In this document: one piece after another, positions 44,375 to 50,538 of the stretch
Numbering within the stretch: position 1 is the stretch's first letter
How the letters are laid out: every line of letters starts with the position of its first letter
Assembly: GCA_963844885.1 (NCBI GenBank)
Contig: CAWJQA010000001.1
Location: 68,575-132,574 of the forward strand
Direction of reading: 5' to 3'
Source of the DNA: an uncultured Holophagales bacterium
GTDB lineage: Bacteria > Acidobacteriota > Thermoanaerobaculia > Multivoradales > UBA5704
DNA: 64,000 bases
Notes under the pieces: model-generated
Database searches by the model: none
What the model saw: only the letters and a program-made list of their open reading frames with translations
Told to the model about the DNA's origin: nothing
Translations under genes and position numbers: made by a program

Positions 44375-45765
44375 GGGGCGGTCTCCAGGGTGCGGCGGAG
44401 CCAGTCGGGGGTGAGCTCGCCGGCGGCGCGGGCGAGCTCGACGCGGGCGAGCAGCGGCGGCGTGCGCGCGCCTCGGCGAGGCTGGCGCGGGTCGCGAGCC
44501 AGCTCGGCCTCGGCGGCGAGGTAGTCGATCTGCGTGCCGGAGCCGACCTCGAGCAGGAGCTTCTGCATGCGCGCCACCTCGGCGAGGCGCTCGACGGCCA
44601 TCGTGAGGCTGGCGATGCGCGCCTCGGCCTCCTCCTCGGCGGCGGCGGCGCGATCCACGTCCTCGCGCACCTGCACCTCGGCGGCCCGCACCTGCTCCTG
44701 AGCGGCACGGACGCCGGCTTCGGCGCGGGCGATCCGGCGCCGGGTGACGCCGCCGTCGAACAGCGGCACCGTGAGCTGAAGCGCCACGTTCCACTCGCCG
44801 GTGAAATCGCCCTGCGACGACGTCCACTCATTGTAATTGCCCACGGCCCGGAGGTCCGGCCGCAGGATGCTCCGCGCCAGCGCGACGCCGGCCTCGGCCG
44901 TGGCGACCTGCGAGCGCGCCTGGGCCACCGCCGGGCTCGCCTCGATTCCGGCCGCCGCCAGCTCCTCCCGGGACAGCGATCGATCGCCGACCTCGGCCGG
45001 CGCGAGTCGCGAGACGCGGGTCTCGTCGACCGGGATGTCGAGGAGGCGCGCCAGCTCGCGCTCGGAATTGTCGATGGCGGCGGTGAGCCGCACGCGGTCG
45101 GCCTCGGCGTTGGCGAGAGCGGCCTCGGCGCGGAGGATCTCCACCTTCGCGGCGCGGCCCACGTCGAACCGCTGGCGGACGCGTGACAGCTCGGCCCGCA
45201 GCGCGTCCAGCCGGTGATCGTGCGCCGCGAGCACCTGGCTCTGTCCCAGGACGGTGAGGTACGCCGCCGCCACCCGCCGGGCGAGAAGCTGCTCGACCGA
45301 GGAGACCGCGGCGCCGGCGCCTTCCACCTGGGAGCCGGCGGAGCGCACCTGGGCGTCGATGCCGCCGTTGTCGAGCAGCGTGTAGCTCACCGAGAGCGTG
45401 GCCTGCCCGAGCGTCTCGTCGAACTCGGGGAACAGGCCGGGGCTGAAGCCGTGGATGGGTGTGACCACCATGGGCTCCTGGTACTGGGTGGCCGAGCCGG
45501 TGAGCCGCCCCTTGGGCTTGCGGGAAGCCCGAGCTTCGCCGAGAGCCTCCTCGGCCTCGGCCTGGCGAGCCCGCGCCGCCTCCACCGCCGGGAACCGGGC
45601 CAAAGCGCGCTCCACCGCCTCGGGCAGGGTGAGCGCCGTGGCCGCTCTCCCGGGAGAAAGGACCGCAAGGACAACAAGGACGGCAAGGACAAAAAAGCGC
45701 CTCGACCAGGCCGGGTGGGAGGCGCCCTCTCCCCGCGCAGCGGGGGAGGGAAGGGGAGGGGGCAC
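44371..45765 (-). CDS. TolC-family outer membrane efflux protein
   Basis: Signal peptide, LTLPEAVERAL, LQLTVPLFDGG, helical repeats; start uncertain. Confidence 0.88.
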   Translation of the reverse strand: MPPPLPSPAARGEGASHPAWSRRFFVLAVLVVLAVLSPGRAATALTLPEAVERALARFPAVEAARARQAEAEEALGEARASRKPKGRLTGSATQYQEPMVVTPIHGFSPGLFPEFDETLGQATLSVSYTLLDNGGIDAQVRSAGSQVEGAGAAVSSVEQLLARRVAAAYLTVLGQSQVLAAHDHRLDALRAELSRVRQRFDVGRAAKVEILRAEAALANAEADRVRLTAAIDNSERELARLLDIPVDETRVSRLAPAEVGDRSLSREELAAAGIEASPAVAQARSQVATAEAGVALARSILRPDLRAVGNYNEWTSSQGDFTGEWNVALQLTVPLFDGGVTRRRIARAEAGVRAAQEQVRAAEVQVREDVDRAAAAEEEAEARIASLTMAVERLAEVARMQKLLLEVGSGTQIDYLAAEAELARDPRQPRRGARTPPLLARVELARAAGELTPDWLRRTLETAP

Positions 45766-45797
45766 TCATCAACGCTCCTCCTCGGGCGATTGCTGGG

Positions 45798-46304
45798 CTA
45801 AGCTCGTGGCCTGCGGGTGTACAGCGCTTCGTGGAACGCCTTGCCTTCGCGCGCAAGCTGGATCTCGCCGTCGGCGAGCATCCGGCGAAGCACGTCTGAA
45901 GCCGTCCGCGGACCGACGGGCCGGCGCAGGCGGTCCGGGAAAAGGCGGTTGACCTCCGCGGCCAGGGAGGTCGGGCCGAAAGGCTCTGGGAAAGAAGGAC
46001 TCAGGACGACCTGCCGCAGCAGCCGGCTGATCATGAGACGGCCCGAAGGCGATATTGTCTCGTCGGCGGCAGGTGCGGCGCCGGACTGGACCGGGATCGA
46101 CTGCGCCAGCTCGACCGCCGCCGGCACGGCTGTCTTGAAGGCCTCCAGGCTGTGAAGCACCTTCTTCAGCTCGGCCGCATGGGACACCCGTTGCTCGCCG
46201 TGCTCGGATTCCTTCTGCGCGTGGAAGGCCTCCCGTTCGCGATGGAACGCCGCGCGCTTCTCCAGGTTCGCCATCACCTCCGCCACCGAAAGCTTCGAGG
46301 CCAT
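45798..46304 (-). CDS. Coiled-coil plus putative winged-helix DNA-binding protein
   Basis: AAGGGAG SD; N-terminal charged heptads; C-terminal FGPTSLAAEVNRLF...RTASDVLRRMLADGEIQLAREG...ALY wHTH-like pattern. Confidence 0.65.
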   Translation of the reverse strand: MASKLSVAEVMANLEKRAAFHREREAFHAQKESEHGEQRVSHAAELKKVLHSLEAFKTAVPAAVELAQSIPVQSGAAPAADETISPSGRLMISRLLRQVVLSPSFPEPFGPTSLAAEVNRLFPDRLRRPVGPRTASDVLRRMLADGEIQLAREGKAFHEALYTRRPRA

Positions 46305-46526
46305 GCCAATGTCTCCCTTGAGATGACAAGCGCGGACCAGACTTTGCCGCGAGTTACGACAGTCCGCGACCCCGTTGGTTCAGGTTGCGGTGAAAATCCT
46401 CGCGGCTCAGGATAGCATGCGGAGCCGCGTCAGGTCTCCGCGGGCCGCGCCGGCGGGAGCCCAGGTTGCGGTGAACGAGCTCTCCATCGCCCCGCATCTT
46501 GTTGAGGCGCCGTGGATAAGGCCACG

Positions 46527-46852
46527 TTGCGGCAAAGTCGGGTGACATTGCGGCGGAGGAGTTGGAGTTGCGGCAAAGTCGGGTGACGTTGCGGTGGAGG
46601 AGTTGGAGTTGCGGCAAAGTCAGGTGACGTTGCGGTGGAGGAGTCGGAATTGCGGCAAAGTCAGGTGACGTTGCGGTGAAGGAGTTGGAGTTGCGGCAAA
46701 GTCAGGTGACGTTGCGGTGGAGGAGTCGGAGTTGCGGCAAAGTCAGGTGACGTTGCGGTGGAGGAGTCGGAGTTGCGGCAAAGTCAGGTGACGTTGCGGT
46801 GGAGGAGTTGGAGTTGCGGCAAAGTCAGGTGACGTTGCGGTGGAGGAGTTGA
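46527..46852. repeat. Tandem array of 8 x 41 bp (21+20 bp subunits, each starting TTGCGG)
   Basis: Unit TTGCGGCAAAGTCAGGTGACG-TTGCGGTGGAGGAGTTGGAG starts at 46527, 46568, 46609, 46650, 46691, 46732, 46773 and 46814. Confidence 0.97.
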
Positions 46853-46921
46853 CACGGAGACCTCGTACCGTTATCCACCGCAACTCGGCGCCATCGACGG
46901 GCTACGCGCGATGGGCGTGTC

Positions 46922-48175
46922 TCATTCATACTTGCGGAGTGCGAGCACGGCGTTCAATCCGCCGAATGCGAAAGAGTTGGAAAGTGCAACATCAACTCGT
47001 TGTTTGCGAGCGACATTGGCGACGATATCGAGGTCAATCTCGGGGTCGGCAGTGAGGTAGCCGGCCGTGGGCGGGACAATATCTTCCCGAACGGTCATGA
47101 CGCTGGCGACAAGCTCCAGAGCGCCAGCAGCGCCCAAGGCGTGCCCATGCATCGATTTGGTCGATGAAACAGCCAGTTGCTCGGTGTGGCTCCCGAAGAA
47201 GCGTCTGAGGGCCGTAGCCTCAGTCGCATCATTCACCTTGGTGCCCGTCCCATGGGCATTGATGTAGTCCACGTCCTCAGGATTGATACCGCTGTCCCGG
47301 ACGGCGCTTGCCAGGGCTCGCACCAGCCCATCGACTTGCGGTCGAACGAAGTCGGTTGCATCTGAGGAGGTTCCAAAACCGAGAAGCTCTGCGTAGATGT
47401 GGGCGCCCCGTGAGCGCGCCGAGGAAAGGCTCTCCAGAACAAGGATCGCTGCTCCTTCCCCGAGTACCAGCCCGTCCCGCTCGCGGCAGAAGGGTCGGCA
47501 CCCCGTCGCAGAGAGGACTCGCATCTCCTGCCAGGCGCGATAGAGGCTATACGAGGGAAGCATCTCGCTGCCTCCCGCAAGCGCAACAGGCACCGCGCCA
47601 CTGCGGACCATGTTGAAAGCCTGGCCTATGGCATGATTGGCCGAAGAGCATGCGCTCGTCACGGAGAAGGCGGGTCCACGAAGCCCATACGCCATGGTGA
47701 CGAGGCTGACAGCCGAATTCGTCATCGACTGGATGATCGTCAGCGGGTGGGGCCGAAGATCGCGGTAGACGCGAAGGGTCCCAGTATTCCTGGCTGCATC
47801 GCCCCCGACTGCAGTTCCCAGGACGACGGCGGTCTGCTCACTGTGCTCTTGGAGAAAAGCCTCGCCCGCATCTTGGATCGCCTCCTGTGCGGCTACGAGC
47901 GCGAACTGAGCAAAGCGGTCCAGCAGAGGAACGCGGAGGCTGGCCCTGCCCTTGGGAGGCTGAAAGTCGCGAACCTCGGCAGCGAGCCACTGAAACGGTT
48001 CCCCGTTCTCACCGGCAGGCCATTCCTCGGTATCGCGGGAGACAAGCTGGATTCCGGACCTGCCCTGCCGAAGAGCCTCCCAGAAGGCGGCAGAACCCTG
48101 GCCGATCGGAGAGACGACGCCGACGCCCGTGATGGCCACCCGAGTTCTAGGGTTCATGAACGCGCTCTGAGCCAT
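46922..48175 (-). CDS. Beta-ketoacyl-ACP synthase (FabF/NodE-like)
   Basis: TSACSSANHAIG, NAHGTGT, STKSMHGHALG, SNSFAFGG. Confidence 0.93.
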   Translation of the reverse strand: MAQSAFMNPRTRVAITGVGVVSPIGQGSAAFWEALRQGRSGIQLVSRDTEEWPAGENGEPFQWLAAEVRDFQPPKGRASLRVPLLDRFAQFALVAAQEAIQDAGEAFLQEHSEQTAVVLGTAVGGDAARNTGTLRVYRDLRPHPLTIIQSMTNSAVSLVTMAYGLRGPAFSVTSACSSANHAIGQAFNMVRSGAVPVALAGGSEMLPSYSLYRAWQEMRVLSATGCRPFCRERDGLVLGEGAAILVLESLSSARSRGAHIYAELLGFGTSSDATDFVRPQVDGLVRALASAVRDSGINPEDVDYINAHGTGTKVNDATEATALRRFFGSHTEQLAVSSTKSMHGHALGAAGALELVASVMTVREDIVPPTAGYLTADPEIDLDIVANVARKQRVDVALSNSFAFGGLNAVLALRKYE

Positions 48176-48617: not shown

Positions 48618-48746
48618 ATGTCTCCATCTCAGGGTAGCTGTTTCCTCGTGGTCTTGTCCCCTTGGCGTCTTCGTGCTACTAGTAGCACCTCGACTCCTTG
48701 CTGGAATGAACTGGGAGGGAGTTTTACTCAGAGATCAAACGGATGA
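48618..48746 (+). CDS. Putative 42-aa small ORF
   Basis: AAGGAGGT SD at 48606-48613; stop overlaps the ATG of the next gene (ATGA). Confidence 0.4.
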   Translation: MSPSQGSCFLVVLSPWRLRATSSTSTPCWNELGGSFTQRSNG

Positions 48747-49456
48747 TCATGAAATCGGCAACGACCGTTGCCCCGTGGAGCGAGCTCCTGAATTCGTATG
48801 GGGTCAAGTGGGGGCAAACGGAGCTCAATCCTGCCGACCGCAAGCTGGTGGTCGTCCTGGGCAATGCCTATGGGCTCATGAAGTACCAGGAGCCCCTCGC
48901 CAGGAGCCTGTCTTCCGAGGGCGTGAACGCCTTGTGGTCCTCGGCTCCAGGCCAGGAAGGGGCGCGAGGAGTCTTCGGCCTGGAGGGCGGCGTGGTGTTT
49001 CTGCGGGAGCTCGCGCAGGTGGCGCTGGACGAGGATTGGGAGTTGGCTCTACTTTGCCACTGCGCCAGCTCGCTTGGTGCTGTGGAGTTCCTCAATCGGT
49101 TCACTCCGCGAAATGTGCGATGCCTGATCTCCTATGGCCCGCTCCTCAAATTGCCGGCTCTTCGCGAGCGTGCGCTTAGTCAACTCGCGATCGCCGGAGT
49201 CAGCACAGCCATCGGCGAAGAGACATGGCGACTCGACTTTTCAGCCATGCTCGCTTCGTTGCGCTATCCTGCCCTTATTGCCCACAGCCTCGATGTGACG
49301 AATGCTCGCAGGGCAACTGCTGAACAGATCAACGCCTTGGAGAAGTGCCCCTGCGTCAGGAAGACCGTCATTATGGAAGAAGGCTATGATGAGAAAGTCG
49401 AGAATATTCAGCACGCTTTGCCTTACTATCTGGACTTTCTTCGTGAGTACCTGTGA
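48743..49456 (+). CDS. Alpha/beta-hydrolase-like protein
   Basis: LALLCHCASSLGA elbow-like motif, CLISYGP, YPALIAHSLD. Confidence 0.55.
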   Translation: MIMKSATTVAPWSELLNSYGVKWGQTELNPADRKLVVVLGNAYGLMKYQEPLARSLSSEGVNALWSSAPGQEGARGVFGLEGGVVFLRELAQVALDEDWELALLCHCASSLGAVEFLNRFTPRNVRCLISYGPLLKLPALRERALSQLAIAGVSTAIGEETWRLDFSAMLASLRYPALIAHSLDVTNARRATAEQINALEKCPCVRKTVIMEEGYDEKVENIQHALPYYLDFLREYL

Positions 49457-50538
49457 TGAAGAAGTTTGCGTTTTGGGGTTTGGTGCTAACAGCCGTTGCG
49501 GTGGTTGTTTTTCTCTTCGCTGTCCTCAATATAACGCAACTAGTTGATTTGTCAAGGCGTTTTTTCGCACTTGCAATTTGGTTCTGCGTCCTCTCCCTTC
49601 TATCCCTCCTGACGCTCAATCATCTGGTCAATAAGTTCGACCAGAAAAAGCTGAGTCTTTCGCACCTCCTTCTGGGGGGAATGTTGGAACTGGCTATCTT
49701 AGTTTTCTTGGTCGTCGCATTCATTTTGACATTGAATGGCGTGCCTGCCTCTGTGGACGTCCTTGTAGGGACCGCTCCCGCTGCTAGCAATTTCTTAGGC
49801 TTCCTGGCAACTGTTTTTACTCTCTGGGCGGCAGCATCATCAGCGTTTATCCTATTTGCACAGGTCCATCATGAGGAGCTTTCTCAAGCGTTGCGTCGAG
49901 TAAACAATCAGTCTGAGGTTCTGGAAGAGGTAAGGCTTTGGACGGAGAATCCAAACGTCGAACGGGTAGCCTTCTTTGGGGCGTTCTCGGCAATTCCTGG
50001 GTTCTGGGAAGAGCCTATCTCAGAGGCGTACACGTTGATTCATAATCATATCTTCGAGGGAAATAAACCTCCATTTTCATTGATTGGACCCGATGCTAAT
50101 TCCGTTCGTTCGCTTGCAAGCTCTCTCGCGGCGCCGGAACAGAAAAAGCGACTCAAAGAGATGATTAAATGGAGCGAACCTGCTCGCCAACTCTACTCCT
50201 CAACCGAATCAGATACTGCGGATGCCATCAATAAAATTGTTGAAAAATATCAAGAGCTTTGCAACAATCTGGGAGGGATAGTCAAGGTAGCTTCTAATCC
50301 TTGGGAAACTTCTGCTATTACATTTGCGGTCGCACATGATAAATACTCGAACCCAATTGCAGCGATTTTCTTTGGCTCTCCTATTCCAAGCGATGGACTT
50401 TCACCAGGGGAAAAAATTAATATTTTCCGAAAACCGCTTGTTTATATGAGCCGCCGCGAAGAGATTGGGTCATTGCTGATCAATTTGGAGCACGTGATCG
50501 ACGAGAATCTCGCGAACCAGAAAAGGGGAGTGGCGTGA
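49453..50538 (+). CDS. Hypothetical protein with 4 N-terminal TM helices and a soluble C-terminal domain
   Basis: Long open frame in markedly AT-richer DNA; overlaps both neighbours. Confidence 0.7.
   Translation: MMKKFAFWGLVLTAVAVVVFLFAVLNITQLVDLSRRFFALAIWFCVLSLLSLLTLNHLVNKFDQKKLSLSHLLLGGMLELAILVFLVVAFILTLNGVPASVDVLVGTAPAASNFLGFLATVFTLWAAASSAFILFAQVHHEELSQALRRVNNQSEVLEEVRLWTENPNVERVAFFGAFSAIPGFWEEPISEAYTLIHNHIFEGNKPPFSLIGPDANSVRSLASSLAAPEQKKRLKEMIKWSEPARQLYSSTESDTADAINKIVEKYQELCNNLGGIVKVASNPWETSAITFAVAHDKYSNPIAAIFFGSPIPSDGLSPGEKINIFRKPLVYMSRREEIGSLLINLEHVIDENLANQKRGVA

Follow-up and report, generated by a model that had tools for sequence, protein, structure and literature searches.

We analysed a 64,000-nucleotide stretch of DNA from an uncultured Holophagales bacterium, hereafter the window, in which the gene for a 168-residue protein (the 168-aa protein) adjoins an array of tandem direct repeats. 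Taken together, the evidence makes it probable that gene and array form an autoregulatory module and that the protein belongs to a family, so far undescribed, of small proteins of soil Acidobacteria that bind specific DNA sequences. An earlier note on this DNA had inferred an undescribed protein-plus-array module, and this core inference is supported by the comparative evidence and the predicted fold presented below.

A phased array faces the 5' end of the gene

Tandem Repeats Finder places the array at 46526-46851, with a period of 41 bp, 8.0 copies, 96% matches, and a score of 589. Each 41-bp unit is composed of sub-unit A, GTTGCGGCAAAGTCAGGTGAC (21 bp), and sub-unit B, GTTGCGGTGGAGGAGTYGGA (20 bp). 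The array holds 16 TTGCGG cores, including two ATTGCGG variants, and their spacing alternates between 21 and 20 bp; the repeat finder and the motif counts agree with the earlier note on this point. The 12-mer GTTGCGGYRRAG occurs 14 times in the window, every time within the array, while 0.07 occurrences are expected from 100 shuffles. GTTGCGG occurs 33 times versus 12.7 expected, and 17 of these occurrences fall at 46384-46884. Previously noticed between array and gene as degenerate copies, the sequences at 46384 and 46465 proved to be exact GTTGCGG cores; their offsets of 81 and 61 bp correspond to 4 and 3 units and thus keep them in phase. An inverted copy was also reported to close the far side of the array, and it is present at 46871-46884, giving a total of 19 cores at 46384-46884. 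The gene reads away from the array and begins 80 bp from the nearest core; its ATG lies at 46304 on the minus strand, so that its 5' end faces the array, as the earlier reading had it.

45798-46304, minus strand: gene for the 168-aa protein (open reading frame; homologues, predicted structure, fold matches)
46465-46471, plus strand: isolated in-phase core GTTGCGG (exact match), at distances of 61 bp (array) and 81 bp (proximal core)
46526-46851, plus strand: homogenised array, 8 x 41 bp, 16 cores (Tandem Repeats Finder, motif counts, sequence reading)
46871-46884 (core 46878-46884), minus strand: inverted core TTATCCACCGCAAC closing the far side of the array (sequence reading, motif count)

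The homogenisation of the window array at 96% is unusual among the arrays of its orthologues and points to a recent expansion of the A+B dimer as its probable origin. In the genome carrying the window (G000), TATCCACCGCAACTCG, which is near-identical to the inverted core, also follows the array at C6:726731.

Arrays of two helical turns lie upstream of homologous genes

At 34 loci of the protein family, Tandem Repeats Finder detected arrays with a period of 20-21 bp (or 40-42 bp) on the 5' side of most genes. Periodicity was scored as self-similarity at fixed lags in windows of 100 bp, with a threshold of ≥0.5, in three 450-bp regions per gene: the upstream one, the downstream one, and a more distant one on the upstream side. 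In a first set of 32 assessable loci, 21/32 upstream regions reached 0.5, compared with 0/32 downstream and 0/29 far-upstream regions. A second set was taken from named metagenome-assembled genomes; from its 51 loci, 4 partial ones, 2 with short upstream regions, and 6 repeats of the first set were dropped, and 19/39 upstream, 0/37 downstream, and 0/38 far-upstream regions reached the threshold. Some arrays of the family have a 19-bp period, which was overlooked by the first lag set. When the sets were pooled and scored at lags 19-22 and 39-42, the threshold was reached by 48/71 upstream, 3/69 downstream, and 0/67 far-upstream regions. None of the 71 upstream regions reached it at the control lags (15-18/33-36 and 24-27/47-50). 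Gene and array are thus truly associated, and the association is directional and specific to about two helical turns. The pooled counts bear out the expectation in the earlier note that homologues would adjoin arrays of ~20-21 bp.

The core is conserved and changes with the protein clade

The six closest orthologues (G000, G010, G005, G006, G013, and G014; BLASTP identity 58-67%) belong to genera g1, g4, and g5. Their loci contain 10-18 CCGCAA(C) cores at 20/21-bp spacing, which reach to about 20-90 bp before the ATG and are mostly preceded by TTCA or TTTG. Only this 7-11-nt core is kept, and the spacers between cores are unrelated from one orthologue genome to the next. Because cores and phase are retained while the spacers have diverged, both the core and its phase appear to be under selection. 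No conserved neighbour gene was found across the six orthologous loci, and flanking genes are common to the window and G006 only. As G006 alone shares them, gene and array appear to move together as a unit. The orthologues in G058 and G073 likewise directly adjoin CCGCAAC arrays.

We used a tree of 34 family members to pair protein clades with array cores. The clade with the recognition helix RTASDVLRRM has the core CCGCAAC, and that with GQ[VI]SVVLRRL has GCCGCGA. Two proteins with R[AT]VS..LR.M are accompanied by GCCGCAG, and two with GQISVLLRRL by GCTGAGA. The arrays of the paralogues in G000 carry the cores CGTCGCAG, CGCAGAG, CGCAAAGT, and GTTGCAG. The core motif thus shifts with the protein clade, which was the motif co-variation that the earlier note had asked about. 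This match is consistent with a recognition code, although it falls short of proof.

The protein has a predicted coiled coil and a winged-helix domain

In the 168-aa protein, a disordered linker (residues 68-85) is predicted to connect a long N-terminal helix (7-67) to a C-terminal winged helix (86-165). In a collection of 5.8 billion proteins, 244 homologues were found at E≤1e-3; the 119 listed, with the window's own protein left out, share 55-87% identity with it. The named records are hypothetical proteins, all from metagenome-assembled genomes of Thermoanaerobaculia, Holophagales, or Acidobacteriota, and the source name of one homologue (P0103), 'DNA-binding protein H-NS', is an automatic label. 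Among 1.84 billion cluster representatives, 411 matched a profile built from 28 members at E≤1e-3, and almost all of the 150 listed have lengths of 160-185 residues. Across 40 genomes of relatives, the family is present in 19/24 genomes of the window's own bacterial family, with 1-12 copies each, and in 0/16 genomes from eleven other families of the same order. G000 has 6 family genes, the window gene and five paralogues.

Pfam returned 0 families for the protein at E≤0.1, and at this cut-off it showed no sequence membership of the models of Rok (PF23159/PF26513), H-NS, MvaT, or Lsr2. NCBIfam has no family for it, the only hit (E 0.11) being a chance one. In the ESM Atlas, only unnamed Acidobacteriota clusters lie above 0.9; the nearest named clusters, HARE-HTH (0.86) and Rok-like (0.83), serve as leads only.

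The structure was predicted with AlphaFold2 on the alignment. The model has a mean predicted local distance difference test score (pLDDT) of 80, rising to 87-93 across most of the winged-helix domain, whose modelled elements are helices 86-101, 111-121, and 132-144 and strands 148-152 and 161-164. No PDB entry matched in Foldseek at E≤0.001; the best rows are winged helices with E≥2.3e-3. VIA-align against 48,161 chains superposed 75 residues on the FurB DNA-binding domain (2o03_A) with a Z of 9.4 and a root-mean-square deviation of 3.0 Å. The next rows are the winged helices of Fur, PadR-like, Z-alpha, cullin WHB, and IclR proteins, which cover model residues 82-168, and nearly all of the top 50 are winged-helix domains. 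By these model-based comparisons the C-terminal domain is a winged helix, and the assignment made from the letters alone is borne out by the AlphaFold model, Foldseek, and VIA-align.

Homodimer prediction passed with a score of 0.55, compared with 0.00 for the best control. The mark applied is attained by 20/30 proteins whose solved structure is a pair of one chain and by 1/23 solved as single chains. The homodimer runs agree in ≥58% of contacts, and the pLDDT of the partner is ≥75. The predicted interface comprises residues 7-60, which run antiparallel so that residue 31 faces 31 and 18 faces 46. The prediction supports an antiparallel coiled-coil dimer.

A promoter-like element is embedded between the cores

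Between the gene and the array, three further elements were read on the minus strand.

46313-46318, minus strand: Shine-Dalgarno-like AGGGAG, 8 nt before the ATG (sequence reading; putative)
46378-46394, minus strand: proximal core site TTCACCGCAACCTGAAC (core 46384-46390), exact GTTGCGG; probable operator
46409-46417, minus strand: extended -10-like element TGCTATCCT; TGnTAnnnT recurs at the same relative place in orthologues

The orthologues have G-rich purine stretches where the window gene has AGGGAG. The TGCTATCCT element is probably the promoter of the 168-aa gene, and the proximal core, just downstream of the transcription start that this would imply, is a probable operator. The motif TGnTAnnnT followed 15-20 nt later by a core occurs at 17/28 loci of the CCGCAAC orthogroup, often as TTCACCGCAACCTGG. 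When the cores were held fixed and the remainder was shuffled in 500 trials, the mean was 0.6 loci and the maximum 4. Because the -10-like element followed by a core recurs at this frequency, the arrangement points to autoregulation. By analogy, a core just past the transcription start together with a row of cores upstream is the layout of an autorepressed promoter. Of the functions that the earlier note had considered, autoregulation therefore gains support from the promoter-like element, while remaining a candidate.

Similar arrays are dispersed across the genome

The analysis extends beyond the earlier note in that the window array type is multi-copy and arrays of two-turn period occur genome-wide in this bacterial family. 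The window array sequence matches 21 places in G000 with unrelated flanks. At least 9 of the 21 are large GTTGCGG arrays with 7-23 exact cores and the same 20/21 alternation. Several of these dispersed arrays start within 50 bp after a stop codon, and none lies near any of the five G000 paralogues. A pattern of the window unit was matched 98 times in G000; of 40 relatives, two congeners had 4 matches and 1 match, respectively, and the remaining 38 had none.

Tandem Repeats Finder on the whole of G000 returned 997 rows, dominated by periods of 20 (117 rows) and 21 (207 rows) and their multiples. Merging gave 328 arrays of ~20-21 bp that occupy 66,692 bp, or 0.94% of 7.08 Mb. Arrays were sorted into families by in-phase 7-mer counts; single-linkage k-mer clustering was too coarse and put 128 arrays in one family. 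The in-phase cores include CTGCAAC (159 pairs, 18 loci), CCGCAAC (103 pairs, 11 loci), CGCAAAG (85 pairs, 23 loci), CTGCGAC (65 pairs, 17 loci), and GAGCCTC (148 pairs, 26 loci), and further core families exist. Four of the in-phase families have the cores found upstream of the G000 paralogues. The in-phase triple of CCGCAAC is present in 17/81 genomes of the bacterial family (g1 8/10, g5 7/30, g3 1/3), and the backward-read control has ≤1 match per genome, except for 11 in G010. Those 11 matches presumably mark an unrelated array family with the core CAACGCC and the same spacing.

Two gene-less arrays of G000 were compared with congeners, and both are species-specific. Downstream of the orthologue of the C18:178039 gene, an array is present in 0/9 congeners. 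Downstream of the orthologue of the C20:213438 gene, a GTTGCGG array is present in 0/8 congeners, and other 21-bp arrays in 3/8, which suggests that this site is a preferred spot for the birth or replacement of arrays. By this comparison of sequences, gene-less arrays turn over fast. The congeneric counterparts L133, L134, and L136 of C20:215817-216350 hold different 21-bp arrays, with GTTGCGG in G000 only.

Array density was counted in 400-kb samples (period 19-22 and multiples). G000 has 23 arrays, G005 has 20 with 12 family genes, and G016 has 27 with a single family gene. G031, from another family of the order, has 6 short arrays and no family gene. The array habit is a trait of the bacterial family, for which the winged-helix proteins account only in part. 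By crude gene calls, the context of the G000 arrays is convergent for 68, tandem for 94, and divergent for 37; the corresponding numbers for all intergenic gaps of ≥150 bp are 486, 994, and 516.

A second small helical protein family, of about 110-130 residues with the motif HYGxRSEKLxEFGxxPxR, is encoded at 37 places in G000, and 21 of the 37 are within 600 bp of an array. Examples are C15:3686-4072 (minus strand), C12:529322-529708 (plus strand), and C9:160618-160953 (minus strand). The family has no Pfam match above the cut-off; one member has a sub-threshold match to the H-NS N-terminus (E 0.0037). The arrays beside it are mostly of other motif classes, such as CGATAGG, CTAAGTTAGC, GAGCCTCTCG, and GGAGGGAACG.

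Proposed model and its alternatives

In the model that we favour, the winged helix would recognise the core (T)T(C/T)(A/G)CCGCAAC. As the cores are two helical turns apart, all bound domains would lie on one face of the DNA, and the geometry suggests coating along one face or wrapping. Neighbouring dimers may contact each other and would then coat the array cooperatively along that face; the antiparallel helix of ~54 residues would measure ~80 Å, suggestively comparable to the core spacing of 68-71 Å. The protein coat would occlude the gene's own promoter, and through this negative feedback the gene would set its own level. The 168-aa protein would also be expected to coat those dispersed arrays of G000 that bear the CCGCAAC core. 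The dispersed arrays might serve as boundaries, as roadblocks at gene ends, or as bridges, or might simply be carried along.

Several observations weigh against this model. A symmetric antiparallel dimer suits inverted repeats more naturally than direct repeats, so the fit of the predicted dimer to the array would depend on the flexible linker of 18 residues. At 23/71 family loci no periodicity is detected by the score, and two of these have scattered cores. The match between clade and core is weaker as proof than it appears, because relatives inherit protein and site together. A scan for consensus sigma-70 promoters and terminators found 0 sites in 45700-47000, and the promoter therefore remains inferred. 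Array density does not track the number of family genes; given the array-rich G016 sample with its one family gene, other factors must serve most arrays.

A wider reading, which we consider possible but doubtful, is that the bacterial family possesses a system of satellite DNA and satellite-binding proteins. Each paralogue would specify one family of arrays, and the other small protein family may do the same. The gene-linked array would tie the level of each protein to the supply of its own sites, and the dispersed arrays, with their rapid turnover, would be architectural elements coated with protein at gene ends, serving as boundaries, roadblocks, or bridges. Protein specificity and core would diversify together, and with arrays covering about 1% of the chromosome, this would be a prokaryotic counterpart of the co-evolution of eukaryotic satellites.

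The observation that arrays far outnumber family genes (328 versus 6 in G000, and similarly in the G016 sample) and exceed them in diversity is also what would be expected if the arrays were operators through which another factor, for example the second small family or an unknown regulator, controlled this gene family, and the 168-aa protein bound something else. The proximity of the second family to arrays at 21/37 places fits this as well. We nevertheless judge it unlikely, given that cores differ according to the clade of the winged-helix protein beside them, that the 168-aa protein has a predicted DNA-binding fold, and that the arrays of the second family belong to other motif classes. That the arrays are selfish or neutral minisatellites like MIRU, generated by slippage and recombination beside genes to which they matter nothing, is more improbable still. 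The dispersed arrays invite such an explanation, since units 96% alike imply recent homogenisation, the same units recur at 21 places with unrelated flanks, the two gene-less arrays are not conserved in position, and arrays favour gene 3' ends by the crude calls given above. Slippage alone is insufficient for the gene-linked arrays, which are kept across genera with core and phase conserved and spacers diverged, lie upstream only, and contain the conserved promoter-plus-core arrangement.

Two further explanations appear very improbable. The earlier note had raised a partition-like function, in which the module would resemble a centromere and the protein would be an adaptor pairing arrays for segregation. 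Tandem direct repeats upstream of the binder's gene are typical of parC, tubC, and sopC, and TubR is among the weak Foldseek matches (rank 35, E 0.045). This candidate loses support, as no ParA-, ParM-, or TubZ-like partition nucleoside triphosphatase (NTPase) gene is found among the Pfam-scanned neighbours in the window, no neighbour is conserved across the six orthologous loci, and the locus sits in a 219-kb contig amid chromosomal genes. The dispersal of arrays over the chromosome, with eleven arrays of one core per genome, is also unlike a centromere. We give equally little credence to the array acting as RNA, in the form of a transcribed leader or a sponge with repeated motifs. Both strands fold better than shuffles (z -5.5 and -7.2), and the proximal core would fall within the 5' leader if the proposed promoter is right. 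The predicted pairs, however, are 4-bp stems between repeat units, as expected of any such tandem repeat; in the orthologues the 7-11-nt core is preserved but the spacers are not, most of the array is situated upstream of the promoter proposed here, and Rfam gave no match at E≤1 for 45000-48000.

Comparison with known systems

In the plasmid centromere systems ParR-parC, TubR-tubC, and SopB-sopC (twelve 43-bp units), tandem direct repeats lie beside the gene of the protein that coats them. These proteins autoregulate through the same array, and TubR is a winged helix. The array in the window resembles them in adjoining the 168-aa protein's own gene, but here the site is chromosomal, no partner NTPase was found among the scanned neighbours, and many dispersed arrays and up to 12 paralogues occur per genome. 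Iterons are direct repeats of ~20 bp to which winged-helix domains bind, and the initiator represses its own gene. Rep initiators have two winged-helix domains in about 250-350 residues, and iteron arrays have 3-7 units, whereas the 168-aa protein has one predicted winged helix and about half the length of Rep, and its arrays have 10-23 units with no origin features seen. The MIRU of mycobacteria and the BIME of enterobacteria are tandem arrays found at many intergenic loci; their unit types alternate, and the arrays differ from one relative to another. The G000 unit, at 21 places and variable between relatives, is similar. It differs in its invariant period of two helical turns, in the conservation of no more than a short core, and in the linkage of one array of each type to the gene of a presumed cognate binding protein.

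Rok and sRok of Bacillus (H-NS-like) offer the nearest likeness in architecture. In Rok, a linker joins a coiled-coil helix for oligomerisation at the N-terminus to a DNA-binding domain of the winged-helix type at the C-terminus (PMC6936261). The 168-aa protein has the same domain order and its dimer prediction passes, but it has no sequence match to the Pfam models of Rok. Rok prefers AT-rich, horizontally acquired DNA and is not known to have a tandem array of sites. The cores seen here are GC-rich and in strict two-turn phase, although their array borders a lower-GC stretch, and the paralogues of the 168-aa protein each have their own core. BldC of Streptomyces is likewise small, and on direct repeats it forms cooperative multimers, arranged head to tail and variable in length (PMC5859096). 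It differs in having a MerR-like fold without a coiled coil, and it is not known to be accompanied by long homogenised arrays or dispersed satellites.

A search of full-text literature (subscription journals and preprint supplements lie outside it) yielded no description of such arrays or of the protein family, and the genome-wide trait of two-turn-period arrays seems to be unreported. If the protein binds the array, this would define a new bacterial protein family with an architectural or regulatory role. The proposed module would then provide a readable specificity code from recognition helix to a 7-9-bp core, with natural paralogue-core pairs for testing, and would give a function to hundreds of two-turn-period arrays in G000. 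It would also offer a bacterial model for the co-evolution of tandem-repeat DNA and its binding proteins, and orthogonal protein-array pairs could become synthetic DNA-scaffolding parts.

Neighbouring genes and further elements

The Pfam scan of the neighbours found an outer-membrane efflux protein, whose gene follows the 168-aa gene, a ketoacyl synthase, whose gene ends at 46922 beyond the far side of the array, an acyl carrier protein, and two open reading frames without a match. Further downstream, outside the Pfam scan and judged by translation alone, open reading frames for a membrane-fusion protein and ABC transporter ATPases follow. In agreement with the earlier note, no Rep or integrase gene is present among the scanned neighbours, nor is a ParA-like one. 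The fraction of guanine and cytosine (GC) is 0.71-0.81 left of 46000, 0.59-0.63 right of 46500, and 0.44-0.49 at 49500-50500. The array stretch has 0.59, with GC-rich cores, and a lower-GC stretch borders it; GC falls across the array, and its description as an island edge was a fair one. The best match among sequencing runs covers no more than 0.13 of the sampled words, and none of the runs listed is of RNA.

The stretch at 48743-50538 is low in GC (0.44-0.56), contains two open reading frames (237 and 361 residues) without Pfam match, and adjoins the ketoacyl-synthase and acyl-carrier-protein genes; it looks like an acquired island. Just 3' of the 168-aa gene, at 45720-45765, lies a G/C-rich near-palindromic element (GGCGCCCTCTCCCCGCG...CGGGGGAGGGA...). 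A similar copy is found in G000 at about C20:31640-31700, beside the array at C20:31737.

Other array types were also observed. The commonest array unit in G000 is GGGGAGTCGACTCTGCAACT, with examples at C11:266221-266839, C12:48007-48581, and C18:519114-519603. At 16 loci of G000, 41-bp arrays have a unit that is itself an inverted repeat (AAATCTCAGGGG...CCCCTGAGATTT), as at C12:872805-873096 and C11:139616-139906, and they form a class apart from the direct-core arrays. In G005, a 1-kb array (L158:1392-2424, corresponding to C3:3081392-3082424) contains 49 copies of the 21-bp unit CCGGATGACTTGGGCAGCTGC, and a second array of 14 copies is 1.3 kb away. Two readings of array sequences were dropped. 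That of TTATCCACC as a DnaA box had rested on memory, and the motif occurs in just two arrays; that of the GGA-rich B unit as a CsrA sponge was abandoned, GGA not being kept in the orthologue spacers.

Clusters 0 and 3 of array-flanking open reading frames (25 and 13 arrays) were considered as proteins and rejected; their third-position GC is low, and they are probably non-coding repeats. The flanks of about 25 G000 arrays contain mutually similar stretches of low third-position GC, 0-400 bp from arrays of several motif types (for example, C11:336484-336964 and C6:396355-396764), which probably represent a conserved non-coding element accompanying the arrays.

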